From positions 129,226-193,225 of the forward strand of contig JACJZW010000004.1 in assembly GCA_020635355.1 (NCBI GenBank): a stretch of DNA of 64,000 nucleotides, read 5' to 3'. This document shows, piece after piece, positions 8,232-64,000 of this stretch (positions are counted from its first letter, which is position 1; each line of letters opens with the position of its first letter). The notes below the pieces were generated by a model, which saw only the letters and a program-made list of their open reading frames with translations, was not told the DNA's origin and ran no database searches. The translations under genes were made by a program, and so were the position numbers. This DNA is from Flavobacteriales bacterium. Lineage in GTDB: Bacteria; Bacteroidota; Bacteroidia; NS11-12g; UBA9320.

Positions 8232-8288
8232 AAAAGAGCCTCATTCATTGAATTTTTAGTGATCTTGCCCAACAATTATTTTACGACA

Positions 8289-9144: not shown

Positions 9145-9903
9145 ATGGCAGGGCACAGTAAATGGGCCAATATCAAACATAGGAAGGCAGCTCAGGATGC
9201 CAAACGGGCCAAAGTCTGGACGAGGATTATCAAGGAAATAACTATTGCCGCCCGCGATGGGGGTGGAGAGCAGGAGGCAAATCCTACCCTTCGGTTGGCC
9301 ATCCAAAATGCCAAGGGAGCCAACATGCCAAAGGACACCATTGAGCGTGCCATCAAAAAAGGTGTTGGCGGAGAAGGTGCCAATTTGGAACCTGCCATAT
9401 ACGAGGGGTATGGTCCGCATGGTATTGCCATCATCATTGAAACCATGACCGATAATATCAACCGGACTGTGGCTAATGTGAGATCCATCTTCAATAAATT
9501 TGATGGTAGTCTGGGAACCAATGGGTCGCTTTCGTTCATCTTTGATCAGAAAGGAGTGTTCACCATTCATTCATCCGCTATTGAGGAGATGGACACCGAT
9601 GAATTAGAACTGGAACTCATTGAAGGTGGCGCTGAAGATGTGGAGCATGTAGAGGATAAATTAATCATTACCACGGCATTCGAAGATTTTGGGTTGATGC
9701 AGAAGAAACTGGAAGAACTTTCCCTTGAGGCCGAAAGTGCCGAGCTTCAACGCATCCCAAACAATACGTTGGCTATTGGTGTAGACGAGGCCAAGCGGGT
9801 GCTTGCCATGATCGATAAGTTTGAAGAGGACGATGATGTGAATACCGTTTTTCACAACCTGGAACTCACCGAAGAATTACAAAACGCACTGAACGAGGAA
9901 TAA
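9145..9903 (+). CDS. yebC: YebC/PmpR family transcriptional regulatory protein
   Basis: Starts [21 protein letters not shown], the canonical YebC N-terminus. The ORF-track start at 8980 overlaps the upstream gene and the terminator, so it was rejected. Confidence 0.85.
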
Positions 9904-11468
9904 TGGCAGATCAATCATCCAAATCGGCTGAAACCCGACGGGACTGGCTTTTGCGAAAACGTCGCGAAGCCTTGAAAGGTGGGGGAGAAAGTCGCATCGA
10001 AGCGCAACACGCTAAAGGCAAACTAACAGCCAGAGAGCGGTTGGATTATTTGCTTGATAAAGGAAGTTTCGAAGAGATCGGTGCATTTGTGAAGCATCGA
10101 AGCACGGATTTTGGACTGGATAAAAATCATCCACTGGGCGATGGTGTGGTGACCGGATACGGTACCATCAACGGCCGGTTGGTATATGTGTTCTCCCAGG
10201 ACTTCACGGTTTTTGGCGGATCGCTTTCTGAGACACATGCCGAGAAAATCTGCAAAATCATGGATTTGGCCATGAAGAACGGAGCCCCGGTGATTGGACT
10301 CAATGATTCAGGTGGCGCCCGAATTCAGGAGGGCGTTGTTTCGTTAGGTGGCTACGCCGATATTTTCTACCGAAATACCTTGGCCAGTGGAGTGGTTCCG
10401 CAGATATCAGCGATCATGGGGCCCTGCGCCGGAGGAGCGGTGTATAGCCCGGCCATTACCGACTTCATTATGATGGTGGAAGACACCTCTTATATGTTTG
10501 TGACCGGACCCAATGTGGTGAAAACCGTAACAAACGAAGAAGTAAGTTCAGAAGATTTAGGAGGAGCATCGGTTCATTCATCCAAATCCGGTGTGGCGCA
10601 TTTTACCGCGCCAAATGAGATTGCCTTGATGGATAATCTCCGCAGTTTGCTTTCCTATCTTCCTCAAAATTGTGAAGAGCATGCCGAAATGCTCACCTAT
10701 GATCTAAACGATGAAGTTCGTGCGGAATTGGCCGGTATTGTTCCAGAAAACCCCAATCAGCCGTACGATATCCGTCAGGTGGTAGATGGCATTGTGGATC
10801 CCGATAGCTTTTTTGAGGTACACAGCGCATTTGCTGAAAATATCGTGGTGGGTTTTGCCCGATTGGCGGGAAGAAGTATCGGAATTGTTGCCAATCAACC
10901 GGCCTTCCTCGCGGGGGTGTTAGATGTTAAGTCCAGTCAAAAAGGAGCTCGGTTTGTGCGATTTTGTGATGCCTTCAACATTCCGTTGCTGGTGTTGGAA
11001 GATGTACCTGGCTTCCTTCCGGGAACCGATCAGGAGTGGAACGCCATCATTACAAATGGCGCCAAACTGCTTTATGCGTTTAGCGAAGCTACCGTGCCAA
11101 GGGTAACCGTTATTACCCGCAAGGCCTACGGAGGAGCTTACGATGTGATGAATTCCAAGCACATTGGAGCCGATATGAACTTTGCATGGCCATCGGCAGA
11201 AATCGCTGTAATGGGAGCGAAGGGTGCAGCCGAAATCATCTTCCGACGAGAAATCCAATCGGCCGAAGATCCAGAGGCGGCACTAAAGGAACACGAACAC
11301 GAGTATGCAACGATTTTTGCGAATCCATATCGGGCGGCGGAACGTGGCTTTGTGGATGAAGTAATCCTTCCAGAAGAAACTCGAATTAAGTTGATCAAAG
11401 CATTTAAGATGCTGGAAAACAAGGTTGATCATCTTCCTAAAAAGAAGCACGGAAACATCCCACTTTAA
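9903..11468 (+). CDS. acyl-CoA carboxylase carboxyltransferase subunit (propionyl-CoA carboxylase beta / methylmalonyl-CoA carboxyltransferase family)
   Basis: 521 aa with AccD/PccB-like sequence. The start ATG overlaps the yebC stop by 1 nt (TAATG). Confidence 0.85.
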
Positions 11469-17473: not shown

Positions 17474-17623
17474 TACTTTCGCAGGGCATTAGACAGGGGT
17501 GTCGGACATGAATCCGGCTGAGATTATACCCGTTGAACCTGATGCGGTTCATACCGCCGAAGGGAGTCATTGGAGTGTTCTGCACCGCTTTCCTGCGCGT
17601 ATTTATTATTTATACCCATTGCG

Positions 17624-20080
17624 ATGAACATCAGAAACTCCCTTCTTTTAGTCCTATTTGTTGCGCTGATTGGATCCACCCTTTGTGCCCAACAAGTTGT
17701 GTTTACCCTGGTTGATCGGACAACTAATTTACCTATTGAACATGTTGAGGTTGTTATCATATCGCCCAATAAATCAACTTCAGATCCTGTTGCCAGGTAT
17801 ATCACCAATTCATCCGGAAAGCTCACAGCAAACGTGTCATCGTCCCAACGATATACGGTAATTACACATCATATATCCTACGAGACCGACACCTTTTACT
17901 GGCACAACCAAAACCCGTTCGTGATCCAACTTACACCAACAACGGAGAAAATGGAGGAAGCATTAATTACCGCTGTTCGTCCTTCCAAGGAAGTGCCATC
18001 AACCACCACATTGGTTACCAAGGAGGAGATTGATCGGGTGAATTTTGGTCAGGACATGCCAGTGTTATTATCTCAAACTCCTTCAACCGTCACGAGCAGT
18101 GATGCCGGTTCAGGAGTGGGGTATACCGGTATCCGAATTCGTGGAATAGATCCAACGCGGGTGAATGTGACCATCAACGGCATTCCATTGAATGATGCCG
18201 AGTCCCACGGTGTTTATTGGGTTGACTTGCCCGACTTTGCCAGCAGTTCCAACAGTATTCAGATTCAACGTGGTGTGGGAACCAGTACCAATGGCGCCGG
18301 GGCATTCGGGGCGAGCATTAACATCAAATCAGATCATGTTGAGCGCAATCCGTTCGTAGTAGCTGATGTCGGATATGGGTCATTTAACACAAGAAGAATC
18401 TCAATCCAACAAGGTACTGGCGTATCAAAAACTGGTTGGGGGCTGCAATCCCGGTTGTCCTTGATTCAATCGGACGGCTTTATTGATCGCGCCTCATCGG
18501 ATTTGCGATCGCTTTTTCTGACTGCCGCACATTACGGGAAGCGGGATCTGTTAAAATTCAATGTAATTCTGGGTCACGAACGCACGTATCAAGCCTGGTA
18601 TGGCGTTCCGCAACCCTATTTTAATCAGGATAAGGACGGCACAGAAGCCTTCATGAATGAGTTGTATTTCACTCCGGAAGATCGAGATCACCTATATGCC
18701 AGCAAATACAACCGATACAATCCATATACCTATGAAAATGAAGTTGACAATTACGACCAACATCACTTCCAGGGATTCTATAACCGACGATTAAAAGGAG
18801 GCATTCACTTAAATACAGGTTTACACTACACCAAGGGTTTTGGTTATTATGAGCAGTATCGTCCGGATGATGAGTTTGCCACCTATGGGTGGGATACTGT
18901 AATGCTTGGTGGTGATACCATTAGGTCTGGTGATTTTATCCGACGAAGATGGTTGGATAATGATTTCTATGGAATGATCTTCTCCCTGAACATTCCGGTT
19001 GATCATATAAATCTAATCGCAGGTGGCGGCGTACATCGTTACATCGGCAGGCATTGTGGAGAAGTGATCTGGGCACAATTTGGCTCTGACGGCTTCCTCG
19101 GAGATCGATATTACAACCAGGACGCCAGAAAAGATGATGCCAATCTTTACCTCAAGTTAACCACCAATTACCAGGACCATCTTTTCTTTTATGGCGACAT
19201 GCAGGTCAGAACGGTGACCTATGACCTTGATATGGTGAGTGGACATCTCAATGAACAACTCACATTCTTCAATCCCAAGGCTGGGGCAACGTACGGATGG
19301 GGAGCAAAACGAAATCATACGGCTCATATTATGCTGGCTGTGGCCAACAGGGAACCCGTTCGGGACGATTATGTCTCAGCACCTAATAGTTTCAAACTTC
19401 GACATGAAAACCTTCGGAATCTGGAGGTTGGAAACGAATGGCAATTCCGAAAAGTGACGGGGCGAATCAATGGGTACTACATGTATTACCGATACCAATT
19501 GGTTTTAACAGGAGAGATCAATGATGTGGGCGATTACATCCGAACCAATGTCCCTAAAAGTTATCGGGCCGGGGTAGAAACAGAGGTGGCCTATGAGCCC
19601 AATTCATCCTGGAGGATCACCGCAAATGCCACCTTTAGCCAGAATAAAATTGTTGAATTCACGGAGTATGTGGATGATTGGAGTACGGGTGATCAAGTGG
19701 CGTTTGATCATGTGAAAAGTGATTTAGCCTTTTCCCCGGCGTTGATTGGGTTCGCGTCCATCGAGTATCGGGTTAAACCGCAAATAAATCTGAATCTAAA
19801 TGGGAAATATGTCTCCCAACAATACCTGGATAATAGCCAAAGTGCAGAACGAAGTTTACCTGCCTTCTACGTAACCAACTTTACGGCCTCCAAGGACTGG
19901 GTTCTAAAGAAAGGTACCCAAATTTCATTGGGACTTCAGGTGAATAATTTACTGGATGTGGATTATGCTCCAAATGGGTACACCTTTGGGACCATGGATG
20001 CCGGTGTACGAAAGAGCTACAACTACGTTTACCCGATGGCAGGCAGACACGGGATGATTCGATTAAAAGTTAAAATCTGA
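17624..20080 (+). CDS. TonB-dependent outer-membrane receptor with N-terminal carboxypeptidase-regulatory-like domain
   Basis: Signal peptide MNIRNSLLLVLFVALIGSTLCAQQ, plug and barrel regions, and a C-terminal aromatic-rich beta-barrel end. The ORF-track start at 17570 is probably too early. Confidence 0.8.
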   Translation: MNIRNSLLLVLFVALIGSTLCAQQVVFTLVDRTTNLPIEHVEVVIISPNKSTSDPVARYITNSSGKLTANVSSSQRYTVITHHISYETDTFYWHNQNPFVIQLTPTTEKMEEALITAVRPSKEVPSTTTLVTKEEIDRVNFGQDMPVLLSQTPSTVTSSDAGSGVGYTGIRIRGIDPTRVNVTINGIPLNDAESHGVYWVDLPDFASSSNSIQIQRGVGTSTNGAGAFGASINIKSDHVERNPFVVADVGYGSFNTRRISIQQGTGVSKTGWGLQSRLSLIQSDGFIDRASSDLRSLFLTAAHYGKRDLLKFNVILGHERTYQAWYGVPQPYFNQDKDGTEAFMNELYFTPEDRDHLYASKYNRYNPYTYENEVDNYDQHHFQGFYNRRLKGGIHLNTGLHYTKGFGYYEQYRPDDEFATYGWDTVMLGGDTIRSGDFIRRRWLDNDFYGMIFSLNIPVDHINLIAGGGVHRYIGRHCGEVIWAQFGSDGFLGDRYYNQDARKDDANLYLKLTTNYQDHLFFYGDMQVRTVTYDLDMVSGHLNEQLTFFNPKAGATYGWGAKRNHTAHIMLAVANREPVRDDYVSAPNSFKLRHENLRNLEVGNEWQFRKVTGRINGYYMYYRYQLVLTGEINDVGDYIRTNVPKSYRAGVETEVAYEPNSSWRITANATFSQNKIVEFTEYVDDWSTGDQVAFDHVKSDLAFSPALIGFASIEYRVKPQINLNLNGKYVSQQYLDNSQSAERSLPAFYVTNFTASKDWVLKKGTQISLGLQVNNLLDVDYAPNGYTFGTMDAGVRKSYNYVYPMAGRHGMIRLKVKI

Positions 20081-52835: not shown

Positions 52836-53933
52836 ATGCGCGTTCCAACTCCGCGAATACCCAGTTTACGAATTAAGCGAAAGCCGTACTACCGACAATC
52901 CGCCAAGTCCGGCTTGCCACCCGGCACCTTGGTACACATTGGTGCCGAGCGGGAAGAACCCGTTACCATAACCTATGTGCGTTACAACGAAACGGAGTTT
53001 ACCCGGGAAGAGATAACGCTTGAACAACTGGAGGAGTTAAAAACTGATGGCGGTTCGATACATTGGATAAACGTGGATGGCTTAACCAATCCGGATGTCA
53101 TTGCGCGAACGGGAGAGAAATTCAATCTTCCGCATCTGATGCTGGAAGACATCATGAACACCGAACACATTCCTAAGGTGGAGGTGTTTCGGGATTTTAT
53201 CTTCTTTACTCTAAAGGCCCTGCACTTCAATACGAATTCGTTGGAGTTGGACACGGAGCAGGTGAGTTTTGTTCTCGGTAGAAACTACGTATTGTCCTTT
53301 CAGGAGCGCCCGGAAAATGTGTACGAAGGCATTTTGAGACGGATGGAAGAAGGGAAGTTCAAGAACCGTCCGGCTGATTTTCTGGTGTATCGGTTGTGCG
53401 ATGTGATTGTTGACAGTTACTATCAGGTACTGGAACACCTGGAAGAGAATATTGACGTGAGTGAGGAAGCCATTTTCGAACGTCCGGTTCCTTCGCAATT
53501 ACAGGATATTCAGAGTTTGAAGCGGGTATTGCTGGTACTTCGGAAGAGTATATACCCGTTGCGGGAAGCCATCAACCAGTTGCAAAAGCGCGACAATGAC
53601 TTGATTCACGCCGAGACCGTTCAATACTTTAAGGATTTATACGATCACACCGTTCACATTGTAGAGGCCATTGAAACCGCGCGGGATCTCAATTCGGGGC
53701 TGAAAGACATCTATCTGAGCAGTCTGAGCAATAAGATGAACCGGGTGATGCAGGTGCTTACCATTATCTCAACCGTGTTCATTCCGTTATCCTTTATCAC
53801 CGGCCTTTACGGAATGAATTTCGATCACATGCCCGAACTGCATTGGCAAAACGGATATTTTGGTATTCTGGCCATCATGTTTGCCGTAACCATGGTTCAA
53901 TTGTATTTCTTCCGAAGGAAAGGTTGGTTTTAA
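52836..53933 (+). CDS. corA: magnesium/cobalt transporter CorA
   Basis: GMNF motif (YGMNFDHMP), two C-terminal transmembrane helices and an N-terminal region KSGLPPGTLVHIG resembling CorA. The exact start is uncertain. Confidence 0.85.
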   Translation: MRVPTPRIPSLRIKRKPYYRQSAKSGLPPGTLVHIGAEREEPVTITYVRYNETEFTREEITLEQLEELKTDGGSIHWINVDGLTNPDVIARTGEKFNLPHLMLEDIMNTEHIPKVEVFRDFIFFTLKALHFNTNSLELDTEQVSFVLGRNYVLSFQERPENVYEGILRRMEEGKFKNRPADFLVYRLCDVIVDSYYQVLEHLEENIDVSEEAIFERPVPSQLQDIQSLKRVLLVLRKSIYPLREAINQLQKRDNDLIHAETVQYFKDLYDHTVHIVEAIETARDLNSGLKDIYLSSLSNKMNRVMQVLTIISTVFIPLSFITGLYGMNFDHMPELHWQNGYFGILAIMFAVTMVQLYFFRRKGWF

Positions 53934-54027
53934 GTGTAATGAGATCGTTATCAATGGCCTGTCGGCGCTGATTTTGCTTGCTTATATCGAGGTTATTGGT
54001 CAAATTTGAAATTCTCAAAGAAATAAT

Positions 54028-54558
54028 ATGAAAGGAAAAATTGTTTTGGCAGCTTTAGCCTCCGTGGTGATGTTTGCCTCATGCGATGAATTGGCAGATC
54101 TGGGAATTAAAGTAAACCTTGATCGATCCGCTGATTTCACCATCTACCCATCAACGGTAGCCGATACTACTTATACGGAAACAACCGATACCATGCGATT
54201 TGACGATATTGTTGGCGAGGTTCAGGCTTCGATTCCGGCATTTTCGAAAGAAAATCTACACGGATTTTTGGTTGACTCAGTGGTGTTTACCCTTCAGGAG
54301 CCACAATCTGGTAACTTTAATTGGGCAAAAAGCTCATCGGTAACCATCCGAAGTGCCAACCATCCTGCACCTGTTGTTGTGGGTGAACTTGCCGACTACC
54401 CAATGGATGTTATGAAAGTAACTGTTCCCGGTGGTGGTGTGGATTTCGCTGATCGTCTGAAGGATGATTGGTTCATTTTTGAAGTAGTCACTGCCAGTGA
54501 TGAAGTAATTTTGGTTGAACATAAGATCAACGGAAAATTCTTCATGAAGGTCTGGTAA
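54028..54558 (+). CDS. hypothetical lipoprotein (tandem paralog 1)
   Basis: Signal peptide + lipobox (MFASC). Confidence 0.55.
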   Translation: MKGKIVLAALASVVMFASCDELADLGIKVNLDRSADFTIYPSTVADTTYTETTDTMRFDDIVGEVQASIPAFSKENLHGFLVDSVVFTLQEPQSGNFNWAKSSSVTIRSANHPAPVVVGELADYPMDVMKVTVPGGGVDFADRLKDDWFIFEVVTASDEVILVEHKINGKFFMKVW

Positions 54559-54581
54559 GAATTAATCAATGAATAGATAAA

Positions 54582-54609
54582 AAGCCTCGACTTAGTTGAG
54601 GCTTTTTTT
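54582..54609 (+). terminator. rho-independent terminator between tandem lipoprotein paralogs
   Basis: AAGCCTC-gacttagtt-GAGGCTT followed by TTTTTTT. Confidence 0.6.
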
Positions 54610-54614
54610 ATGAT

Positions 54615-55154
54615 ATGAAACAACTCATTTTTAGCACAATTCTCCTTGCGACGTTGTTTACGTCAGCCTGCAAAAAACTAAACAAGATTGTTCAGTTTAA
54701 TTTGGACTATAAAACCCAGGTCACCATTCCTTCTACGACGGGGATTGACTTGCCGTTCAACGTGCTCACGCCGGATATTGAGACCAATGCCCAGTCCAGC
54801 TTTGAGGCCAATGATACCCGAAAGGACTTAATTAATTCCATTGAATTGTCGAAACTCACCTTAACGGTGAAATCACCCCAGGGTGAGGATTTTTCGTTTT
54901 TGAAATCGGCTAAAGTATTTATTGATGCCGATGGGTTGGACGAAAAGGAAGTGGCGGTTATTGATCCCGTTCCATCCAATGCCGGATCGGTGATTGAGCT
55001 GGTTCCAACAGGGGCTGATTTGGCACCGTATATAAAGGCCGATCAATTCACGTTAAAGGTGCGAACCATTACCGACGAGGCACTAACGCGCGATCATACC
55101 ATTGAGGTGTTTAGTCGGTTTCACGTAGAAGGCCGACTCATAGGTTCCGATTAA
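54615..55154 (+). CDS. hypothetical lipoprotein (tandem paralog 2)
   Basis: Lipobox FTSAC; similar domain layout to the 54028 gene (FTLQEPQSGNFNWAKSSSVTI vs LTVKSPQGEDFSFLKSAKVFI). Confidence 0.55.
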   Translation: MKQLIFSTILLATLFTSACKKLNKIVQFNLDYKTQVTIPSTTGIDLPFNVLTPDIETNAQSSFEANDTRKDLINSIELSKLTLTVKSPQGEDFSFLKSAKVFIDADGLDEKEVAVIDPVPSNAGSVIELVPTGADLAPYIKADQFTLKVRTITDEALTRDHTIEVFSRFHVEGRLIGSD

Positions 55155-55171
55155 CCCATCGGATACGTGCT

Positions 55172-55888
55172 CTACAGATTGAGCGTTGCGTTGTGGAAGA
55201 CGTTTTGAACATCTTCATCTTCCTCCAGCTTCTCGATAAGTTTATTTACCGTTTCGGCTGATTCACCGGAAAGCTCAACAAAGTTGTGAGGGATGCGTTC
55301 CTTATCCACTGATATAATGGTTACGCCCATAGTCTCGAGCATTTTCTGCATGTTGCCAAAATCCGAGAAGGAGGTGTATACCAGGGTCTCATCTTCCTGC
55401 TGCTCAATTTCTTCGAGTCCGCCTTCGATCAGTTCCAGTTCCAGTTCTTCCAGGTCATGGTCAGCGGGATCGATGCGGAAGATGCACTTGCGCTCGAAGA
55501 GGTAATCCAGCGAACCCGACTTGCCCAATTCGGCCTGATTACGGTTGAGGATGGCTCGAATGTTGGCCACTGTTCGATTGGTATTATCCGTAGCCGTTTC
55601 AATCACCACACCCACTCCGGATGGGCCCACAGCCTCGTAAACCACTTCCTCGTAATTACTTGAATCCTTCTCGCTGGCGCGCTTAATTGCGGCTTCCACG
55701 CGGTCTTTGGGCATATTCTCCGACTTGGCATTTTGAATGGCCACGCGGAGGCGGGAATTGTGTTCCGGATCCGGTCCGCCATCTTTAACCGCCATGGCGA
55801 TTTCTTTTCCAATGCGGGTAAAGGTCACGGCCATTTTACCCCATCGTTTCATTTTGCGCTCTTTCCGGAATTCAAATGCTCTTCCCAT
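55172..55888 (-). CDS. YebC/PmpR family protein, second paralog
   Basis: 238 aa, alignable by eye to the 9145..9903 yebC (KDRVEAAIKRAS, TDNTNRTVANIRAI). Confidence 0.8.
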   Translation of the reverse strand: MGRAFEFRKERKMKRWGKMAVTFTRIGKEIAMAVKDGGPDPEHNSRLRVAIQNAKSENMPKDRVEAAIKRASEKDSSNYEEVVYEAVGPSGVGVVIETATDNTNRTVANIRAILNRNQAELGKSGSLDYLFERKCIFRIDPADHDLEELELELIEGGLEEIEQQEDETLVYTSFSDFGNMQKMLETMGVTIISVDKERIPHNFVELSGESAETVNKLIEKLEEDEDVQNVFHNATLNL

Positions 55889-55933
55889 AATGTGTTTTCA
55901 AGTGGTGCAAAATTCGGTGGAAAGTTTGAGAAT

Positions 55934-55972
55934 AGGAATGGGGAATGGGGAATGAGGAATGAGGGATGGGGG
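55934..55972. repeat. heptanucleotide tandem repeat (RGGRATG x5-6), G-tract rich, in yebC-2 promoter region
   Basis: aggaatg gggaatg gggaatg aggaatg agggatg gggg, 46-84 bp upstream of the yebC-2 start codon. Confidence 0.65.
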
Positions 55973-56370
55973 ACGCCTTCGGAGGATTAGAGTTCAGAGT
56001 TTGGAGTTCAGGAATGGGACACCTTCGCTAAGGCTTCGGTGACTGAGAGAAATGACACACCTTCGCTGAAGCTACGGCGTGTGAAAAAAAACCCGGGTCA
56101 TGAAAGAAGTTTGAGTGGTTTAACCCTACTCATTTCTATTGTAGGTTGTAGTAAGCAGCACAACCCGGGTGTTGGCTATGGCACCGCCTCACGGCGGTAT
56201 TCCATTGATCTTCTATGTCTTGAACGTTGAAGCAAATGTGTTTGCACCAATCGTTAAAATTTTTGTCAAAAGTTTGTCGGCTTCAGAAACGGGGCACGAC
56301 AACGCAGATTGAACAGAATTTGAGGGGCAAATCCATCACCTTTCCGGGTGAAGTTGGAACACAATCACGT

Positions 56371-56439
56371 TCACGATTTAAGCGTGCAAAACACGAATTC
56401 TTCAATGAGTTCATGGTATTGGCGTTGAAATTTATTCAT
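56371..56439 (-). pseudogene. 5' remnant of lipoprotein paralog (MNKF... then frameshift/stop after 22 codons)
   Basis: The minus strand reads ATG AAT AAA TTT..., preceded by the same conserved upstream module and hairpin element as the intact paralogs. Confidence 0.4.
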
Positions 56440-56490
56440 TGGTATACAGTCAGATGGTTAAGTTGTTGGTTTAGGATGGTTTGGAATCAT

Positions 56491-56530
56491 CCGTAGACTT
56501 CCTGCCCACGGGGCTAGGCTAAGTCTACGG
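56491..56530. repeat. hairpin repeat element copy 1 (CCGTAGAC-24 nt-GTCTACGG)
   Basis: ccgtagacttcctgcccacggggctaggctaagtctacgg; an 8-bp perfect inverted-repeat stem. Confidence 0.7.
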
Positions 56531-56664
56531 AAGGGTGTCGACTTAAGACTGTTTTATGGAGTTAATTTGGTGCAAGAAACTCGGCGTAGTGTTCCATCCG
56601 CCGAAGAAGGCGAATGGCTAAATCGTTCGTGGATCTTGCTAAAGAGTGGTTAAATCAGCGGATC

Positions 56665-56705
56665 CGTACATATCCTACGCATGGGCTGGAAGCTAAGTCT
56701 CAGGA
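56665..56705. repeat. hairpin repeat element copy 2 (degenerate)
   Basis: ccgtacatatcctacgcatgggctggaagctaagtctcagg. Confidence 0.5.
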
Positions 56706-56736
56706 ACCTGTGGTGCGATTGAAGTCAATGCAGGTT

Positions 56737-56781
56737 TATTCACCCATCAATTCATAATCCTTAGGATTATCCAGGATCGAT
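56737..56781 (-). pseudogene. 3' remnant of lipoprotein paralog (encodes ...SILDNPKDYELMGE*)
   Basis: Near-identical to the 3' ends of the genes ending at 60546 and 62367. Confidence 0.45.
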
Positions 56782-57225
56782 GGTATAGGTTAGTTTTACC
56801 AGACCATATTTCGGTGATAATATTATTAAGCGATTGAGTCTGATTTATTATTGAATATGTATTCAGAGTTACTACGATAGACAGCTGAGACTGTTAAGTA
56901 CCCCTGATATGGTAAATCCTTCTTCATTTGAACACAATCAAATACCGTCCTATCATATAACTGTATCCTTAAACACATTTTTGACTAAAAGAAACCAGAA
57001 CCGTTGGTTAACCATAACCTTTGCTTAACTTTCGAAAAGTGTTGGTCCGTTTTGAACTGAATCAAATCTATGACGTAGGGAGTCCTCTCCTCTTTCATTC
57101 GGAGTTTTTAAAACTTTGTGTACACGTTCTTTACACATTGGTTTTAGACAAGCTTTTACCTCAAATCCAAATTGAATGAACAATCAGTTCTCCCAAAAAA
57201 ATAGGAGGAATTGTCAATATTTCCG

Positions 57226-57417
57226 TTAAACGATGCAGTATCTTGACGAATACAATTCGTCAAAAAGTTCAACTACATCTTGCTCAGTCGGTTGAATCTT
57301 ATGTGACGCAGGTAATACCCAAAATTGTGGAGGCCCGTCATCCACGCCGCAGGAGGAGAAACTGCCAAGACAAAGACTTATGAGGAAGTATAGAATGATA
57401 TGTTGAGTAGAAGACAT
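57226..57417 (-). pseudogene. N-terminal remnant of lipoprotein paralog (63 codons)
   Basis: Translation ...LCLGSFSSCGVDDGPPQFWVLPAS...EQDVVELFDEL matches the SSCGSDENPNNECPPQFFELQPSVEDMIESL region of the intact paralogs. Confidence 0.5.
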
Positions 57418-58290
57418 AGGTAGGTTATGGTTTTTCTAATGCTATAACACAGCGGTTAGAACCAATGCCTGTTCACTTAATCATTTCGTACCCATAATCG
57501 GGATCAAACCAAAAGATCAGAAAAGTCGGCTTTAAGATGGAGTATATCCTCTGCTTCTATAATGATATCTCCGTAAGCTGAAAATTACCCCCCCAAATCG
57601 CGAAAGGTTTGGTTCCTATTGTATGTTGGGGTTATATCCAATGCTAGAATAGTCACCAATTCCAGAAAGACATTGCCTGCAAAATTCACATAGTACAAGT
57701 CTTCGCAAAGAAAACGTAAACTAAAGATTCCTGAGCCCTCATTTAAATTTGTACTTCAAATGGTGAAGAAACCTTCGTATTGTGATAAAGTGCTGTTTTT
57801 CTTTCAATGTGAACTATCTCGTTGATCTCCCTGGAATGGTTGATTTGCTTCGTTCAAGGGTATCTATTTCATTTCTTAACTAAGTAATAGGTTGAGGTGT
57901 CTACAACCATCCCATTTACCTGTCTTTTTTCCAAATACCAGGGAATCTAGGGTATTAAAACATGAAAGTGACAAGTCGGTCAAGTGTATTGGGTTTGAAC
58001 CTTACATAGAAATGTATGATATTTAGTGTGGGATCCTCTTTACAGGGAATGGATTCTAGAAACAAAGATAAAAACAACTGAGTATACAGGTTTTTCATGA
58101 TTTAGGTTGAACCAGAATACTTACGAGTTGTTTTATTGTCCATTGTTTTTTTGGTTGAATTCTCCATTGTTCTGCTGTACCTTTAAAAGTTGGTATGTTT
58201 TACTCAGTATGAAAAATTATAATCAAGGGAGTTAGGGTAGATGTGTTTGGGACGATATGGCACATTTTATAGTGTTGTAGTTTACCTTTT

Positions 58291-58893
58291 GTGCAACTTC
58301 CGTCCTGCACATCAGATGACGGCAAGACGGATTGCGAAAATCTGGAATTTAAATTTCAAGGTACATTGGATGACCTGATTACCGATCTTTTAGTCGGCAT
58401 GCTGTTTGAACGTAGTTTAGATGGCCTGTTGGTTGACACTGTTTCTCTTAAATTGGAATCATTTGAAACCGATTTCATTCATCTTCACCACTGTAATAAT
58501 GCTACCCGTTCGATGGAGTTGAAATGGCTCCAGTACAGGTGGTCAGCGGATTTAGAAGATATATCTCTTGCTTTTATTAAATCGGGATCAACGTCAACAG
58601 ATGCCTTTGCCACCTGGGGGGAACTCGACCTGTATAGTCGAAATTTCTTCCATAAAAGCGGGTATACGATTGTCTTCCAAAAGGATACTTTCTTTGATTG
58701 TAGGAGTTTTGATGATGTGTTGTCTCCGGTCAATAATATTGTGGGTTTAGGGAAGTATTTTGATTCAAATGCCAACGTCCAATTCAAGCCAAACACCTCG
58801 AAGGCCTTTGTATACCTCAAGCGGGAATCCGGACTTGTTTTGCTGAAACGGATAAATCCGGACGGGGTTATAGAATCGTATAAGCGAATTTGA
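58291..58893 (+). pseudogene. lipoprotein-family ORF lacking signal peptide (possible 5'-truncated paralog, GTG start)
   Basis: Begins (V)QLPSCTSDDGKTDCENL, a lipobox with no preceding signal peptide, and resembles LLSCKDDASDTNCEETI of the 59721..60422 gene. There is no ATG; an in-frame stop lies 7 codons upstream. Confidence 0.35.
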
Positions 58894-58966
58894 ACGGTAT
58901 CTCAATTAATTTGCATGAGTTCGAATAATTAGATCCTTGGTTAAATAAGGTTGTTAATTTCGTGTT

Positions 58967-59005
58967 CCGTAGACATCCTACGCACGGGCTGGGCTAAGGC
59001 TACGG
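58967..59005. repeat. hairpin repeat element copy 3
   Basis: ccgtagacatcctacgcacgggctgggctaaggctacgg. Confidence 0.7.
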
Positions 59006-59701
59006 AGAGTTAGAGTGGGATGAGGATAAACGTCTGATTCGAAACATATCCTTATCAAATTTTATATTGAATTGCGTTGAGATGGATGCTCCAACGAGCC
59101 AGGTATTCAATCGGCGTTGCAGAACGTTGTATTGAACAAACATCCCTGCGGATAACCGATTGTTGGGGAAGAAATAATATCTGGGAGAAAGGTTAATGGC
59201 CATCATACTTACGAGCTGACCAGTTCGGTAGTGTACTTGAAGTGGCTCGATGGGGTATTTTATTTCATGCGCGGTTGTCATTGACCTTCTTCCATACGAT
59301 GCCCAGATTGGAATTTTCAGATGTTCCAGAGCATTCAGGGAGTAACCTAAACCAATGAAATGCGTTTTGTAAGCCCACGTCACCGGCCGACTGGTAACTT
59401 TACCATTTGGCCAGTTCTTGTAATAGTTCGTGTTATATAATTCGGAATATTCCTTTTGTCTTATAAGGCAAAAGAACAGCCCATTAGGCAAGTGATACTT
59501 GAATGAGATACCCCGATTGGTCCAGGTTGGGACTGGAGGAACCGAATGCTCAAAAATGGTAGCTAAATCATTGTTGTAGTCTCCGGAGTGAGTTAACAGT
59601 TCGATTTCGAACGAAGTGGTTGATTTTTGTGCCCATAGTATAGTGTTGGAATACATAAATCCAACGAACGCAATTACAAAATGGAGTAGGTAATTGGGCA
59701 T
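59000..59701 (-). CDS. hypothetical secreted protein (Tyr/Asn-rich, possible beta-barrel)
   Basis: Start taken at the signal-peptide-like MPNYLLHFVIAFVGFMYSNTILWAQ; the ORF track extends it to 59773. Confidence 0.45.
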   Translation of the reverse strand: MPNYLLHFVIAFVGFMYSNTILWAQKSTTSFEIELLTHSGDYNNDLATIFEHSVPPVPTWTNRGISFKYHLPNGLFFCLIRQKEYSELYNTNYYKNWPNGKVTSRPVTWAYKTHFIGLGYSLNALEHLKIPIWASYGRRSMTTAHEIKYPIEPLQVHYRTGQLVSMMAINLSPRYYFFPNNRLSAGMFVQYNVLQRRLNTWLVGASISTQFNIKFDKDMFRIRRLSSSHSNSP

Positions 59702-59720
59702 TTTATAGAGGATTGGTTGT

Positions 59721-60422
59721 TCAGTTAATCCGTTCGAGATAAGCTGGTGTTGCATCTTGTTCAACCATCTCAAGATGTATAAGTCCTACCTTGTTGCTAA
59801 AATACCCAGTGATAGTTAAGTTGTTGCCAAGAGGTAAATTATCATATTCCCCCCATTGATTAAGCACAGACATGAAACTCGAGATAGGCCCATTAGACAT
59901 TTTTATACCAAGATAAAATGGATAACACTCCTCGTACACATGGTTGGTTATTACTATGGAAGTGTCTTTTGAAGGCCCAATGTTTCCGGTTTTATAAGTG
60001 TAAAAGTGTGGATATCCGTGGTAGGTTACTATGAACATATGCCAAATATCAGAGGCCATCGCATCAACCTCGAATGAATCAGAACCATCAGTCGAAATGT
60101 ATTTGAAATTTATTCTTTCAACGAACAAAACATCCTTATCCTCGCATTCATGAAGTAACGCTATGGTTCTACTTCTGAATTCAGGAAATGTTTTAGCGCT
60201 AAATACATTTGTAAACTTTATCGTGTCGGTTTTTAAACCGATTATTTTCCTAAATACGAGTGTGTCCTTGAACATCAATGCCGGGATGAGGGTATCTGCA
60301 ATTCGTTCACTAAGCAAAATTGTCTCCTCACAATTTGTGTCGCTTGCATCATCCTTGCAGGATAGGAGGAATGAAGCTAATGCAGCCAAGGAGGCGAGTA
60401 GGATAGGATTTAACTTAAGCAT
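59721..60422 (-). CDS. hypothetical lipoprotein (LLSCKDD lipobox; distant member of the paralog family)
   Basis: Signal peptide + LLSCKDD. The C-terminal ITGYFSNKVGLIHLEM resembles FSGYYKRGVGLLKMTY of the paralogs. Confidence 0.55.
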   Translation of the reverse strand: MLKLNPILLASLAALASFLLSCKDDASDTNCEETILLSERIADTLIPALMFKDTLVFRKIIGLKTDTIKFTNVFSAKTFPEFRSRTIALLHECEDKDVLFVERINFKYISTDGSDSFEVDAMASDIWHMFIVTYHGYPHFYTYKTGNIGPSKDTSIVITNHVYEECYPFYLGIKMSNGPISSFMSVLNQWGEYDNLPLGNNLTITGYFSNKVGLIHLEMVEQDATPAYLERIN

Positions 60423-60478
60423 TCAATTCACAGTCTTCCAAAAATACGTAGATGGTGCAAATGTGCTACAGGCGTGTT

Positions 60479-60521
60479 CCGTTGACATCCTTCGAACGGG
60501 CTGGGCTAATTCTTCGGAACG
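60479..60521. repeat. hairpin repeat element copy 4 (degenerate stem)
   Basis: ccgttgacatccttcgaacgggctgggctaattcttcggaacg; lies 25 bp after the upstream gene stop and 57 bp before the 60422 start. Confidence 0.55.
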
Positions 60522-60545
60522 TGTGGCGGGATTGATCACTGCGGT

Positions 60546-61205
60546 TTATTCACCCATCAACTCATAATCCAACGGATTATCTTCATCCAGGTAGTACGTC
60601 ATTTTGAGTAATCCGACCCCTCTTTTATAATAACCTGAAAAAGGGACATAACCATTCTTAAGATTTAAATCACCAATGGAGTTAAATCCCTCTTTTGATG
60701 AGATAAAGTGTCCCTGAAGTGCTAATATGTTAAAAAGTTTAAAACAATTAGATTCGGTACGATTGTACAACTGTAATTCTGTTAACGAATTGGACCAAAA
60801 AAATGTACTTGCTGTGGTTAGGGCATATGACTTACGTACGACAAAAAGGACTGGTGAGCCTCTATATTGCACCAATTCAACACTAAATGAATCTTCGCCA
60901 TTTTCAGACCGAAAGAATGTACGCAAGCGTTCATAAAAGAGATTTGTCCTCGCACAAGGTGCTTCATCAAATTCAATGGTATCTCTTATTGAACCTGAGT
61001 TGAGGAATAGAACCGTGTCAATTTTGCCGTATTGGGATACCCGATAATAAATTGAATCTCTTGTTTGTAAACTTTCAATTATATCCTGAACGGAAAGATG
61101 AAAACCAAAGAACAGAGGTTGACATTCATTACTGGGAGTTTCATCCGGTCCGCAACTTGGAAGGATCAACGCGAGTCCACAAAGGAGCCATAGAAATTTG
61201 TTCAT
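60546..61205 (-). CDS. hypothetical lipoprotein, paralog A
   Basis: Start placed at MNKFLWLLCGLALILPSCGPDE (signal + lipobox); the ORF track extends 60 codons upstream to 61385. About three-quarters identical by eye to the 62367..63023 product. Confidence 0.6.
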   Translation of the reverse strand: MNKFLWLLCGLALILPSCGPDETPSNECQPLFFGFHLSVQDIIESLQTRDSIYYRVSQYGKIDTVLFLNSGSIRDTIEFDEAPCARTNLFYERLRTFFRSENGEDSFSVELVQYRGSPVLFVVRKSYALTTASTFFWSNSLTELQLYNRTESNCFKLFNILALQGHFISSKEGFNSIGDLNLKNGYVPFSGYYKRGVGLLKMTYYLDEDNPLDYELMGE

Positions 61206-61265
61206 TGGATAGATTGTTAAACAAGTATAGTGTTTACGGTTGGTTAATTGTAGGATTCGGTAATC

Positions 61266-61296
61266 ATCCTCCACACGGGTCGGGCTAAGGCTAAGG
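61266..61296. repeat. hairpin repeat element copy 5 (5'-truncated)
   Basis: atcctccacacgggtcgggctaaggctaagg. Confidence 0.5.
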
Positions 61297-61351
61297 AAAG
61301 TGGGGGAGCAGGAAATAGTAATGCCAGTCATCAGTTGTTCGTATTTTTGGA

Positions 61352-62332
61352 ATGAAAGCGAATCGTCTAATGAGGTTACAGGCATACTACATTCTGATGA
61401 TCACATCAGTGATTTGTTTTCAGCTCCTTTCATGTAAGGATGATTCTAACCTAAATAGCTCCACGTGCACTCCCTTTGACGAACTATATCCTAAATCGGG
61501 TAATTCAGGTAGTACAACCTTTACCTATAGGTACCCGCTCCACTCCAAACCAATGTTTTCCGAATCTCCCTCAGCGAAGTTTTATCTTCTGTTGAATGAT
61601 ACGGTCCAAAGGTATCGTTTGATAGCTATGCGGGACGGAGAATCTGAACGGAGAGAGACTGATCTGACGTTGCCTTATGATGTTCAGATCACAATGAATT
61701 CACGAGAAGAATTTGCCTACATCTTAGTTGGAAGTCTATTTGTTGTGGATACCCTTGGGAGCCCGCTTCATTCGTTCAATGACGAGGGGTATTATAGGTC
61801 TCCATGTTGGTTTGATGATTCAACGATTATTTGTGAATACTCCGAAACCGGTGGCGTACCATACCACACAATAAGGATTCATTTGAATTCAGGGAGAAAG
61901 GACACATTAAATTTTCCTTTCATGAAGGGGAGAATGTCGGTTGATAAACTTCACATTGCCATTGATGTTGATCGCATGGGAGAAGTACTTGCCATTTATG
62001 ACAAAGAGGGTATGCAACGTAAGTTGTTAAAATTTGCAACAGATGACGGACGAAATAACCTGATTGCTTTTGAGTGGTTAAGTTCAAATGAAATCATCTA
62101 CATTCTGGAGTCGGATGGTGTCTTTATGTACGATATAAACACCGACAGACATACCAAATTGCTTTCTCACTGCAGATATGAACGGTATGATGAACTAAGT
62201 GTTGATCCTGAACAAAAACAACTATTATTGATCAAGCGTACAACCAGCTATCTCAGCGAATTTCATCACATCATATCTACAGAGATTTATCATTATAATC
62301 TGCTGTCCAAAGAGTTAAGGAAGGTATTCTAA
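61352..62332 (+). CDS. hypothetical lipoprotein, possible beta-propeller fold (LLSCKDD lipobox)
   Basis: Signal peptide + LLSCKDDSN. A perfect TAnnTTTG-type motif (TATTTTTG) lies 11 bp upstream, so the internal Met at 61370 is an alternative start. Confidence 0.55.
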   Translation: MKANRLMRLQAYYILMITSVICFQLLSCKDDSNLNSSTCTPFDELYPKSGNSGSTTFTYRYPLHSKPMFSESPSAKFYLLLNDTVQRYRLIAMRDGESERRETDLTLPYDVQITMNSREEFAYILVGSLFVVDTLGSPLHSFNDEGYYRSPCWFDDSTIICEYSETGGVPYHTIRIHLNSGRKDTLNFPFMKGRMSVDKLHIAIDVDRMGEVLAIYDKEGMQRKLLKFATDDGRNNLIAFEWLSSNEIIYILESDGVFMYDINTDRHTKLLSHCRYERYDELSVDPEQKQLLLIKRTTSYLSEFHHIISTEIYHYNLLSKELRKVF

Positions 62333-62366
62333 TCATGCGACTATATCCGGAGAATGATCAAGGTTT

Positions 62367-63023
62367 CTAGTCCATCAACTCATAATCCAGCGGATTATCC
62401 TGATCCAGGTAAAATGTCATTTTAAGCAGGCCAACACCCCTTTTGTAATAACCAATAAAAGGGACATAACCTCCTTTGAGATTTAAGTCACCATTGGAGT
62501 TAAATCCCTCTATTGATGAGGTAAAGTGCCCTTGATGTGTTAACATGTTGAAAAGTTTAAAACTATTGGATTCTGTGCGATCGTACAACTCTAAATCTGT
62601 TAATGAATTGGTCCAAAAAAATTGACTTGCCGTGGTTAGAGCATAAGACTTACTTACCACAAAAAGAACAGGTCCGGACTTATCTTGCACCAATTCAACA
62701 CTAAATGAATCTTCGCCATTTTCAGATCGAAAGATTGTCCGAAATCGTTCATAGAATAAATTCTCTTCAGCACAGAACCCATCTGCAAAACTCAAAGTAT
62801 CTCTTTTTGAACCTGAGTTGAGGAATAGAATGGTGTCTGTTTTGCCGTATTGGGAAACACGATAGGCAACGGAATCTCTTGATTCCAAGCTTTCAATCAT
62901 ATCCTCGACAGATGGCTGCAACTCGAAGAATTGAGGGGGGCATTCATTATTTGGATTTTCATCAGACCCGCAACTTGAAAAGATCAACGCGAGTCCACAA
63001 AGGAGCCATGGAATTTTGTTCAT
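62367..63023 (-). CDS. hypothetical lipoprotein, paralog B
   Basis: Start placed at MNKIPWLLCGLALIFSSCGSDE; the ORF track extends it to 63122. Confidence 0.6.
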   Translation of the reverse strand: MNKIPWLLCGLALIFSSCGSDENPNNECPPQFFELQPSVEDMIESLESRDSVAYRVSQYGKTDTILFLNSGSKRDTLSFADGFCAEENLFYERFRTIFRSENGEDSFSVELVQDKSGPVLFVVSKSYALTTASQFFWTNSLTDLELYDRTESNSFKLFNMLTHQGHFTSSIEGFNSNGDLNLKGGYVPFIGYYKRGVGLLKMTFYLDQDNPLDYELMD

Positions 63024-63103
63024 TGGATAGATTGTTAAACAAGTATAGGGTTTACGGGTGGTTAATGGTAGGATTCGGTAATCATGCTTCGCGCAGGCAA
63101 GTT

Positions 63104-63142
63104 CCGTAGACATCCTGCGCACGGGCTGGGCTAAGTCTACGG
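63104..63142. repeat. hairpin repeat element copy 6 (best copy)
   Basis: ccgtagacatcctgcgcacgggctgggctaagtctacgg. Confidence 0.7.
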
Positions 63143-63429
63143 AACGTTTGAATTGCCATGATGGGCTGATATAAATCAGGTTGACGCATCCGGTTTGGTA
63201 TTTATACTTTGAATAACTAAACTTGGATTCTAAAGCGAAGTCGACTTATGAACGTCTCTTTAAGCAGGAGAAAGTGGTGCATCGCTGGTAGGTTGAACTA
63301 AAAGTATTACTAGCCGATCAGGTTGTGTAGGATGATCCACCTTTGCGGTTAACGCATAGGTCCCGATCAGTCGGTTTATTACATCGAACATGCCCATCAC
63401 AGACCTGCTGCTGTTGTTATCAGATAGTC

Positions 63430-64000
63430 ATGACGCATCTTTTTCCGACCCTTGGAAATCGGGTTTTCCATTTAACCACGGGTGTTTTTATCTTTTTAAT
63501 GGGGTATAGTAATCCCATCCAGGCACAACAGGTAGAATTACCGGAAGAGGCTTCTCAAAGTTGGTGGGAATCTGTGACCAAAGACATCGAAAGCCGGGAG
63601 TATCATTTCTCACAAATGGACGAGCAGCATTACCGTTGCCCCAATCGGGCCAACAACCTGTTGGCCGTGGTTGAGCCAGGAAACTTAACACTGAGTCCGC
63701 ACCGGGATTCAACGGCTAACTGGTCGTTAAGACTGGACTTGAACGGGATTTATGCCGATGGCATCAGACTGTATGGCACGGAGAATATTCCGGTGAATAA
63801 GGTGGTTATGGAGGATGCGCGACTTGTTTTTGATCATACATACGTGCAGGAAGAGTACATCAACACCAAAGAAGGTGTGCGACAAAACTTCATCTTGAAG
63901 CATGGTCCGACCGATGCAACCGAGATTGAAGTGCGATTAAACGTTGCCGGTCTTATCCCCAACAAGGTACATGATACCGAAATCCATTTGTGCCAGCGCC
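63430..64000 (+). CDS. secreted protein, N-terminal part (continues beyond window end)
   Basis: ATG at 63430 opens a frame with no stop through 64000: MTHLFPTLGNRVFHLTTGVFIFLMGYSNPIQAQQVELPEEASQSWWESVTKDIESREYHF... It is absent from the ORF track because no stop falls inside the window. Confidence 0.5.
   Translation, partial: MTHLFPTLGNRVFHLTTGVFIFLMGYSNPIQAQQVELPEEASQSWWESVTKDIESREYHFSQMDEQHYRCPNRANNLLAVVEPGNLTLSPHRDSTANWSLRLDLNGIYADGIRLYGTENIPVNKVVMEDARLVFDHTYVQEEYINTKEGVRQNFILKHGPTDATEIEVRLNVAGLIPNKVHDTEIHLCQR

Follow-up and report, generated by a model that had tools for sequence, protein, structure and literature searches.

A family of REP-like hairpins, probably belonging to a REPtron, in an orphan lipoprotein gene array of a Flavobacteriales bacterium

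Some bacterial genomes carry short extragenic palindromes that are cognate to a single-copy Y1/HUH transposase gene, which they also flank. The classical examples are the repetitive extragenic palindromic (REP) sequences and bacterial interspersed mosaic elements (BIMEs) of E. coli with their transposase TnpA-REP (structure 4ER8), and the REPINs (REP doublets) of Pseudomonas with their REP-associated tyrosine transposase, or RAYT (Bertels and Rainey 2011, PMC3116915; Nunvar et al. 2010, PMC2817692). A little-studied relative is subclass 2.6 of the TnpA-REP proteins (PMC6006769), which corresponds to RAYT Group 5 of Bertels et al. 2017 (PMC5581495): proteins of ~179 aa, mostly from Bacteroidetes, with the motifs NH[LIV]H, WQ, YIH[QN]NP and SS and a HuH-to-Y distance of ~82 aa (Quentin et al. 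2018, PMC6006769). Genes of this subclass are bordered by secondary structures of an atypical kind that have copies elsewhere in the genome and are without the canonical GT[AG]G foot; the hairpin of Pedobacter saltans ADY50670.1, for example, reads CTGT-CCGTAGAG-N13-CTCTACGG (Quentin et al. 2018, PMC6006769). Here, we describe six hairpin repeats at one end of a 64,000-nt stretch of a Flavobacteriales bacterium (assembly GCA_020635355.1, contig JACJZW010000004.1, positions 129,226 to 193,225; hereafter, the window). Very probably, these are the REP-like hairpins of a REPtron, in which a single RAYT gene is bracketed by cognate hairpins; that gene lies ~3.9 kb past the end of the window. We regard the system as a fairly ordinary new example of a REPtron (RAYT subclass 2.6/Group 5), and not as a new regulatory or recombination system. 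Three of its features are mildly unusual: (i) a long conserved loop, (ii) a half-copy architecture, and (iii) a 12-kb local spread within an orphan lipoprotein array.

A preliminary description of the window, made from its letters alone, listed six copies of a ~40-bp hairpin repeat, at 56491, 56665, 58967, 60479, 61266 and 63104 (positions are in window numbering throughout). Pattern scans and a profile hidden Markov model (HMM) recover all six, as same-strand (+) copies of a 45-57 nt element. The exact form CCGTAGAC-N20-28-GTCTACGG matches twice, at 56491 and 63104, where zero matches are expected in shuffled sequence; only in these two copies does the spacer of the exact form measure N23/24. 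Scanning the window with a 39-nt consensus and allowing <=3 mismatches adds copy 58967. A degenerate pattern that fits 6/6 copies has window matches only at 56500, 56673, 58976, 60488, 61267 and 63113, all on the + strand, and none in shuffled sequence. The profile HMM recovers the window copies at E 1e-13 to 1e-19 and, at E<=10, finds nothing in the rest of the 64 kb except a half copy (that is, a 5' arm plus part of the loop) at 63069-63098; the element is indeed absent from the first 55 kb, as the preliminary description had noted.

The copies differ in how much of the stem survives. Two stems are perfect (56491, 63104), one is nearly so (58967, with one mismatch) and three are decayed (60479, 56665, 61266), much as first described. 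The perfect pairing reported for the best copies is likewise confirmed, but the dimensions given at the time (~40 bp, with an 8-bp stem) are too small. The repeat unit extends ~12 nt further at the 5' end (GGTTTGGAATGA) and ~6 nt further at the 3' end (AGTGGG), and the stem of the best copy measures 10-11 bp (TTCCGTAGAC/GTCTACGGAA). Read from its 5' end, the unit opens with the extension GGTTTGGAATGA; a half copy made up of the 5' arm and ATCCT...CGCAGGCAAG comes next, then the hairpin itself (TTCCGTAGAC - ATCCTNCGCACGGGCTGGGCTAA - GTCTACGGAA), and lastly the 3' extension AGTGGG; with the half copy in front of the hairpin included, a complete unit spans ~80-95 nt. When folded as RNA or single-stranded DNA (ssDNA), copies 56491 and 63104 do far better than shuffled sequence (z = -3.6 to -5.5; for 56491, an ssDNA fold of -16.1 kcal/mol, z = -5.5) and 58967 does marginally better, while 60479, 56665 and 61266 fold no better than shuffled sequence. 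The 5' arm of copy 61266 is replaced by a half-copy arm, and an apparent ~28-nt deletion between half copy and full copy would be consistent with this loss. Placement is extragenic, in agreement with the preliminary description, except that the 3' arm of copy 58967 contains the stop codon of gene D (TAG, 59000-59002; D is the minus-strand gene 59000-59701). Copy 56665 lies ~20 nt beyond the remnant of lipoprotein gene G2, on its 3' side, and copy 63104 occupies the divergent region between gene A and the FG-GAP gene. Spacing between window copies is irregular (173-2303 nt), and the stretch that bears them has a G+C content of 40%, against 45-49% in most of the remaining window; the elements themselves have 51-60%.

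The evidence that identifies the family comes from beyond the window. Exact-protein look-ups led to contig JAGQVZ010000001.1 (GCA_020437705.1), which is collinear with the window, continues past position 64000 and, compared with window 53000-64000, is 100% identical outside a patch at 56222-58397. Beyond the FG-GAP gene, ~3.9 kb past the right window edge and beside a tRNA-Met gene, lies a gene for a 183-aa Y1/HUH protein (L015 3340-3891). The earlier statement that no RAYT or transposase is present therefore holds inside the window, where neither tblastn nor hmmsearch finds a RAYT remnant, but not at the locus; it is a window-edge artefact, the RAYT gene being just past position 64000. The same order (FG-GAP gene, hairpin, RAYT, hairpin, tRNA) is repeated in a second sample (L025). 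An identical RAYT protein is recorded with a longest contig of 200,421 bp, a figure that it shares with lipoproteins A and C, and the RAYT forms one protein cluster at one genomic position across nine contigs from several samples.

The protein scores 98.2 bits on the NCBIfam model NF047646, 'REP-associated tyrosine transposase' (cut-off 80), 36.6 bits on Pfam Y1_Tnp, and 29.7 bits on the IS200 model NF033573, below the cut-off of 55. As a single sequence, it has no match in the PDB; a profile of 20 RAYT homologues has E. coli TnpA-REP (4ER8) as its top solved structure, at E 9.5e-7. Its motifs are SNHVH, YLHNNPV and YSSA, with ~84 aa from H60/H62 to Y145; the WQ motif is present in the homologues, while the 183-aa protein has WY instead. 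By these motifs, and not by a tree, its placement in subclass 2.6/Group 5 appears to fit. Subclass 2.6 REPtrons share with this locus (i) a protein of ~180 aa with the motifs NH[LIV]H, Y[IL]H[QN]NP and SS and a long HuH-to-Y spacing, (ii) 'atypical' flanking hairpins and a host among the Bacteroidota (here, a metagenome-assembled genome), and (iii) a CCGTAG...CTACGG stem core, found in P. saltans ADY50670.1 and in homologue loci L033 and L040/L041. They differ from it in that the locus described here has a conserved long loop (21-24 nt) and a half copy before the hairpin.

Full copies of the window hairpin bracket the RAYT gene on both sides (L015 4005-4055 and 3166-3218; nhmmer E 1e-13 to 1e-16). 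A half copy stands in front of each, as at window 63069-63150, and window 63066-63143 aligns with the RAYT-upstream unit over 79 nt at 83.5% identity (E 3.7e-17). The RAYT coding strand is the window + strand, so that the flanking hairpins have the orientation of the six window copies. With the same hairpin also present to either side of the RAYT, the first proposal, that the element is restricted to the lipoprotein locus, does not hold; six copies are found there, out of at least eight in a RAYT-centred cluster. A REP/MITE-like nature (MITE, miniature inverted-repeat transposable element), one of several options raised at the outset, is the one supported by the RAYT and its flanking hairpins. 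All eight full copies (six in the window, two flanking the RAYT) have stems of 8-11 bp; these are perfect in 4/8, and a fifth has one mismatch. The window together with L015 and L036 amounts to 80.4 kb of one contig, and all of its 8 full and 3 half copies fall within ~12.2 kb; the other 68 kb have none. By our own scan-statistic estimate, such clustering has a probability of ~1e-5 for eight independent placements and ~2e-3 for five. Dispersal without local enrichment, the outcome against which the preliminary description had set its proposal, is thus not what is seen over these 80 kb, the only contiguous sequence checked.

The first two window copies delimit a further structure. Window 56482-56713 consists of a hairpin, a homologue of the RAYT 3' flank and a second hairpin, with the gene lacking. 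The spacer between the hairpins aligns with L024 10568-10625 at 80% identity over 61 nt (E 1.5e-9); in the version carried by other assemblies, it aligns at 81% over 100 nt, running into copy 56665 (E 8e-22). The 5' extension of copy 56491, GGTTTGGAATCA, matches that of the RAYT-upstream copy. By this layout, 56482-56713 is a gene-less miniature of the RAYT unit. Non-autonomous deletion derivatives of IS200/IS605-type elements have a similar layout, with both ends and without the gene. The coordinates of these and the neighbouring features are collected in Table 1.

Table 1. Hairpin copies, RAYT unit and neighbouring genes. Window numbering; coordinates past 64000 are window equivalents extrapolated from the L015/window alignment.
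Feature	Position	Strand	Description
Hairpin copy 1	56482..56536	+	Core 56491-56530, perfect stem CCGTAGAC/GTCTACGG; left end of gene-less miniature
Spacer between copies 1 and 2	56574..56634	+	Homologous to sequence just 3' of RAYT stop; second small hairpin (CGTAGTG...CCGCC-GRAG-GGCGG...)
Hairpin copy 2	56659..56713	+	Degenerate, 5' arm CCGTACAT, 3' arm GTCTCAGG; right end of gene-less miniature
G2 and G1 lipoprotein gene remnants	56720..58100	-	Frameshifted in window; intact in L007, L015
Gene E	58291-58893	+	Orphan array
Hairpin copy 3	58958..59014	+	Core 58967-59005, a single mismatch in the stem; flanked by convergent genes E and D
Gene D	59000-59701	-	Orphan array
Gene C	59721-60422	-	Orphan array
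Hairpin copy 4	60470..60526	+	Stem degenerate; minus-strand genes around: ~26 nt after B stop, 56 nt before C ATG
Gene B	60546-61205	-	Orphan array
Hairpin copy 5	61249..61305	+	Half-copy arm TTCGGTAATC in place of 5' arm; divergent B/F promoter region
Gene F	61352-62332	+	Orphan array
Gene A	62367-63023	-	Orphan array
Half copy	63069..63098	+	Precedes copy 6; E 0.048 alone; same architecture as both RAYT-flanking copies
Hairpin copy 6	63096..63150	+	Best copy; core 63104-63142, 11-bp stem; 80 nt upstream of A ATG
FG-GAP repeat gene	starts 63499 (..64000 in window)	+	1402 aa; separates hairpin cluster from RAYT gene
RAYT upstream hairpin	~67762-67812	+	RAYT coding strand
RAYT gene	~67926-68477	+	Outside window
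RAYT downstream hairpin	~68599-68651	+	RAYT coding strand
tRNA-Met	~69047-69119		

The RAYT has >1,300 relatives, mostly from Bacteroidota and several of them named RayT in their source; the nearest are 54-60% identical. Homologue loci were fetched as four contig sets, and hairpins stand on both sides of the RAYT in 4/4. Their sequences are CTGTCCGTAGTC-TGA-GACTACGGACAG in L033, CTGTCCGTAGAG...CTCTACGGA in L040/L041 (in 2+2-3 direct units of ~155 nt), TCCTTAGTC-N22/31-GACTAAGGA in L034, and GAGTC-TAA-GACTC with long extensions in L030. Each of the four sets thus has its own flanking hairpins, with RAYT and hairpin co-varying across genomes (the sample is small). A CCGTAG stem core is common to L033 and L040/L041, which differ in loop and stem extension, and to the Pedobacter saltans example; judged by these comparator hairpins, the window stem core (TCCGTAGAC/GTCTACGGA) recurs with RAYTs at 54-59% identity. 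At the four comparator loci, the hairpins are all within ~0.5 kb of the RAYT, and the remainder of the surrounding +/-10 kb is free of them, whereas the locus described here has six extra copies 4.5-12 kb from the RAYT, interleaved with the orphan lipoprotein array. The 12-kb spread is therefore larger than in these relatives.

Two of the comparator loci have peculiarities of their own. The RAYT homologue of L040 and L041 (54% identical; region 9650-11100) sits amid composite direct repeats of ~155 nt, each with three different hairpins, and the number of downstream repeat units differs between the two samples (3 vs 2). L034 contains a second gene with a weak Y1_Tnp match (8068-8598), 1.4 kb upstream of RAYT homologue P0007 and adjoining tyrosine recombinase and ribosomal protein genes.

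The Y1 gene and its two hairpins could instead constitute an insertion sequence (IS) of the IS200/IS605 type, rather than a domesticated RAYT, with the window copies being solo ends plus a deletion derivative resembling MITEs or palindrome-associated transposable elements (PATEs). The resemblances are a Y1 transposase, hairpins that lie subterminally at the two ends on a single strand (and directly oriented, as are those of the left and right ends of IS200/IS605), and a miniature that keeps the ends (here, 56482-56713); moreover, RAYT homologues occupy unrelated neighbourhoods in other genomes. However, the protein scores above the cut-off of the curated RAYT model but below that of the IS200 model, its motifs are those of subclass 2.6 and not of subclass 1.1 (Y motif Y---Q), there is no tnpB beside the gene, and multiple gene copies, expected of an IS, are not seen here, the nine contigs showing a single cluster at a single position. 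We therefore consider an IS unlikely.

A second possibility is that the hairpins multiplied only passively, through tandem duplication of lipoprotein cassettes that happened to carry one, and that the RAYT was not involved. Gene duplication probably does account for part of the pattern. The cores of the eight copies are 67-93% identical. Their 120-nt flanks, by contrast, show random-level identity (45-55%) in every pair except two: 63104/61266, which shares the A/B upstream region (paralogous segments, hairpin included, 82-83% identical), and 60479/56665, which shares the 3' ends of paralogous genes B and G2 (with the hairpin, 84% identity over 111 nt). Random-level flanks around a conserved core imply that the unit is discrete, and that gene duplication fails to account for at least four or five copies. 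Copies also adjoin non-homologous genes (D/E, the YebC-side spacer, both sides of the RAYT). Finally, the A and C proteins are 26% identical while their hairpins are 88% identical, and neutral co-duplicated DNA of that age should be unrecognisable. Passive multiplication as the whole explanation is, accordingly, quite unlikely.

The hairpins might also be selected cis signals of the lipoprotein genes: terminators or attenuators, 3' hairpins that stabilise mRNA, or operators, two of which the preliminary description had listed. E. coli REPs stabilise upstream mRNA, every intergenic space in the array of more than ~110 nt carries a hairpin, and three copies stand just after minus-strand genes (G2, D and B). 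A terminator scan, however, called 0/6 copies; the T tract is lacking, the loops measure 21-24 nt, and two of the copies (63104, 61266) precede divergent genes, a position with nothing to terminate. The same element, moreover, brackets an unrelated transposase gene. Neither does the decay of the stem speak for selection at each site. Stem pairing is lost without compensation in 3/6 window copies. Across the family, 84% of stem cells are intact and a single compensatory pair occurs (A-T to T-A in the RAYT-downstream copy, a variant shared with L033), and covariation is not above the shuffle control. This pattern fits recent copies in decay, rather than a structure under selection at each site. 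Rfam returns nothing at the elements, in gathering mode or in E-value mode (E<=10), which likewise removes known structured RNAs from the list of candidates. Taken together, these results leave a terminator, attenuator or operator without support as the primary identity; we judge cis signalling of any of these kinds very unlikely.

A more elaborate proposal would retain the RAYT. Hairpins and RAYT together could act as a local diversification device for the adjacent array of orphan surface lipoproteins, an idea that we consider highly unlikely. On this proposal, the hairpins would sit at the borders of modules and favour the duplication, deletion and decay of paralogues. The A/B duplication, the 28-nt deletion at 61266, the D stop codon and the miniature beside the decayed G1/G2 genes all fit such a proposal. 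If it were true, a domesticated Y1 transposase would have a locus-specific role, as opposed to genome-wide selfish spread.

An integron attC site opens (5') with the core site RYYYAAC (R'') and closes (3') with GTTRRRY (R'). Site-specific recombination sites that shuffle lipoprotein cassettes (attC-like cassette boundaries, or a shufflon/invertase system) are scarcely credible here: the layout is cassette-like and resembles attC/CALIN arrays, with imperfect palindromes in one orientation between one- or two-gene orphan modules in a low-GC stretch, but core sites are absent and the order is wrong (GTT...AAC, with heptamers GTTCCGT/ACGGAAC that do not fit), neither IntI nor any other recombinase occurs among window ORFs >=150 aa or the genes of the flanking 16 kb, the same hairpins also stand at the ends of a Y1 transposase gene, and alignment of the window with L015 and L007 reveals collinearity, without inversion or cassette exchange. 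The recombination-site option and the rearrangements with hairpins at their breakpoints that might have accompanied it thus find no support in the three assemblies. CRISPR repeats and coding elements were also rejected, on the irregular spacing of the copies and on 1-2 nt indels that break any frame; open frames of the element have no match among proteins, in a test that is insensitive (maximum E-value 10, database 5.8e9).

We return to the identification of the family as REP-like hairpins of a REPtron. Several observations weigh against it. Firstly, the RAYT gene lies outside the window, and its linkage to the window copies runs through a near-identical contig. Secondly, the classical hallmark of REPs is genome-wide copy number and dispersal (typically tens to hundreds of copies), and the contiguous sequence read here covers 80.4 kb; the hundreds of dispersed copies of classical REP/RAYT systems are not in evidence in it. 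Thirdly, all copies are direct: 8/8 full and 3 half copies share one orientation, and there are none of the inverted doublets (REPINs/BIMEs) of classical systems. Fourthly, GTAG lies inside the stem (CCGTAGAC) and not at the hairpin foot, which is TT, AT or GATT; no conserved GT[AG]G was found at the 5' foot. Fifthly, a 12-kb spread is atypical of the subfamily, the comparator hairpins at all four loci keeping close to their RAYT. Further points are that the pairs 63104/61266 and 60479/56665 probably arose by gene duplication and not by transposition, and that the protein is only remotely related to classical RAYTs (a family-profile match only). To our knowledge, no activity has been experimentally shown for any subclass 2.6 RAYT.

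Like classical REPs, the hairpins are presumed to be recognised on ssDNA, and a route by which the present arrangement could have come about can be sketched. The RAYT would bind a hairpin folded on ssDNA, then cut and rejoin it, by analogy with E. coli TnpA-REP and IS200/IS605 TnpA, for which ssDNA hairpin recognition, cleavage and rejoining are established (reviewed in PMC6006769 and PMC3733652). Hairpin copies could thereby be seeded into nearby single-stranded intergenic DNA; tandem duplication of lipoprotein genes would then have multiplied some of them, and the copies would now be decaying through point mutation and small deletions. Effects on neighbouring genes (mRNA 3'-end stabilisation, a new stop codon and altered C-terminus of D) are possible by-products. 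All copies are on the RAYT sense strand, which is the G-rich strand throughout the window. This strand bias agrees with targeting of the lagging-strand template, although GC skew over 64 kb is weak evidence.

Searches further afield were made in collections that do not include the source organism. The loop pattern has four matches in 185,579 species genomes, in unrelated taxa; all are without stems and, therefore, are chance matches. The six-copy pattern gave one chance match in the Joint Genome Institute (JGI) metagenomes.

With these findings, a 'regulatory hairpin family' that seemed specific to one locus becomes an identifiable mobile-DNA system; they also illustrate that the decisive gene can sit just past the edge of a scanning window. 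They add a documented REPtron to the Bacteroidota RAYT subclass 2.6/Group 5. For work on how RAYTs recognise and move hairpins, the CCGTAG core shared at 54-59% protein identity, the half-copy-plus-hairpin architecture and the gene-less miniature could be useful; the unusually local 12-kb spread will be of note if whole-genome scans confirm it.

Eight small genes are encoded between 56.7 and 63.0 kb. A, B and C, together with G1 and G2 (intact only in other assemblies), make up five paralogues belonging to a ~220-aa family, and the array genes are putative lipoproteins, judging by lipobox-like L-x-x-C motifs in their translations. The lipoprotein family has no Pfam domain. Its only relatives among 5.8e9 protein clusters (word-indexed search) are from the same species, and it has 14 matches among 1.84e9 representatives; an AlphaFold model has a mean pLDDT of 35 and is unusable. 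The rest of the window is housekeeping in character (PolA, FtsH, fatty-acid synthesis, a TPP riboswitch and similar), and among its ORFs >=150 aa there is no integrase, invertase, other recombinase or transposase.

In a 2.2-kb patch of the window, 56222-58397, comparison with four further assemblies of this organism shows 192 mismatches and 123 gap positions. The four are mutually identical in the patch, and the window is 100% identical to them on 53000-56221 and 58398-64000. This patch, the only difference seen between assemblies, destroys the ORFs of G1 and G2 and the N-terminus of E, all of which are intact elsewhere; the 1-2 nt indels of copies 56491 and 56665 are likewise peculiar to the window sequence and lacking in the four other assemblies. 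The patch is a decayed or divergent allele, or poor sequence, and its edges are not at hairpin copies. Many short-read contigs of the organism (L016-L019, L026-L029) have a terminus within lipoprotein gene B or immediately beyond the RAYT gene. With contig ends falling at the A/B paralogous repeat and at the hairpins, the locus is prone to fragmented assembly.

A polymorphism was also observed on the far side of the RAYT. Between the RAYT-downstream hairpin and the intact tRNA gene, one assembly carries an 84-aa GIY-YIG ORF (L024 10730-11200, equivalent to ~69.0-69.5 kb) bracketed by a duplicated 3' part of tRNA-Met(CAT). The ORF is absent from another sample (L025 3400-3520), in which hairpin and tRNA are immediate neighbours. 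A very small GIY-YIG cassette within a tRNA gene is thus subject to presence/absence polymorphism.

Three further features of the window deserve mention. Just upstream of the hairpin cluster, at 55925-56100, lie a simple repeat of the GAATGGG type and, after it, a pair of imperfect 38-nt direct repeats with CTTCGCTAAGGCTTCGG and CTTCGCTGAAGCTACGG. The window encodes two paralogues of the YebC/TACO1 family (~9150-9900 and 55172-55888), the second of which borders the hairpin/lipoprotein stretch. Lastly, the thiamine pyrophosphate (TPP) riboswitch at 17485-17582 (+; Rfam RF00059, 65.8 bits) precedes a TonB-dependent receptor gene at 17570-20080.

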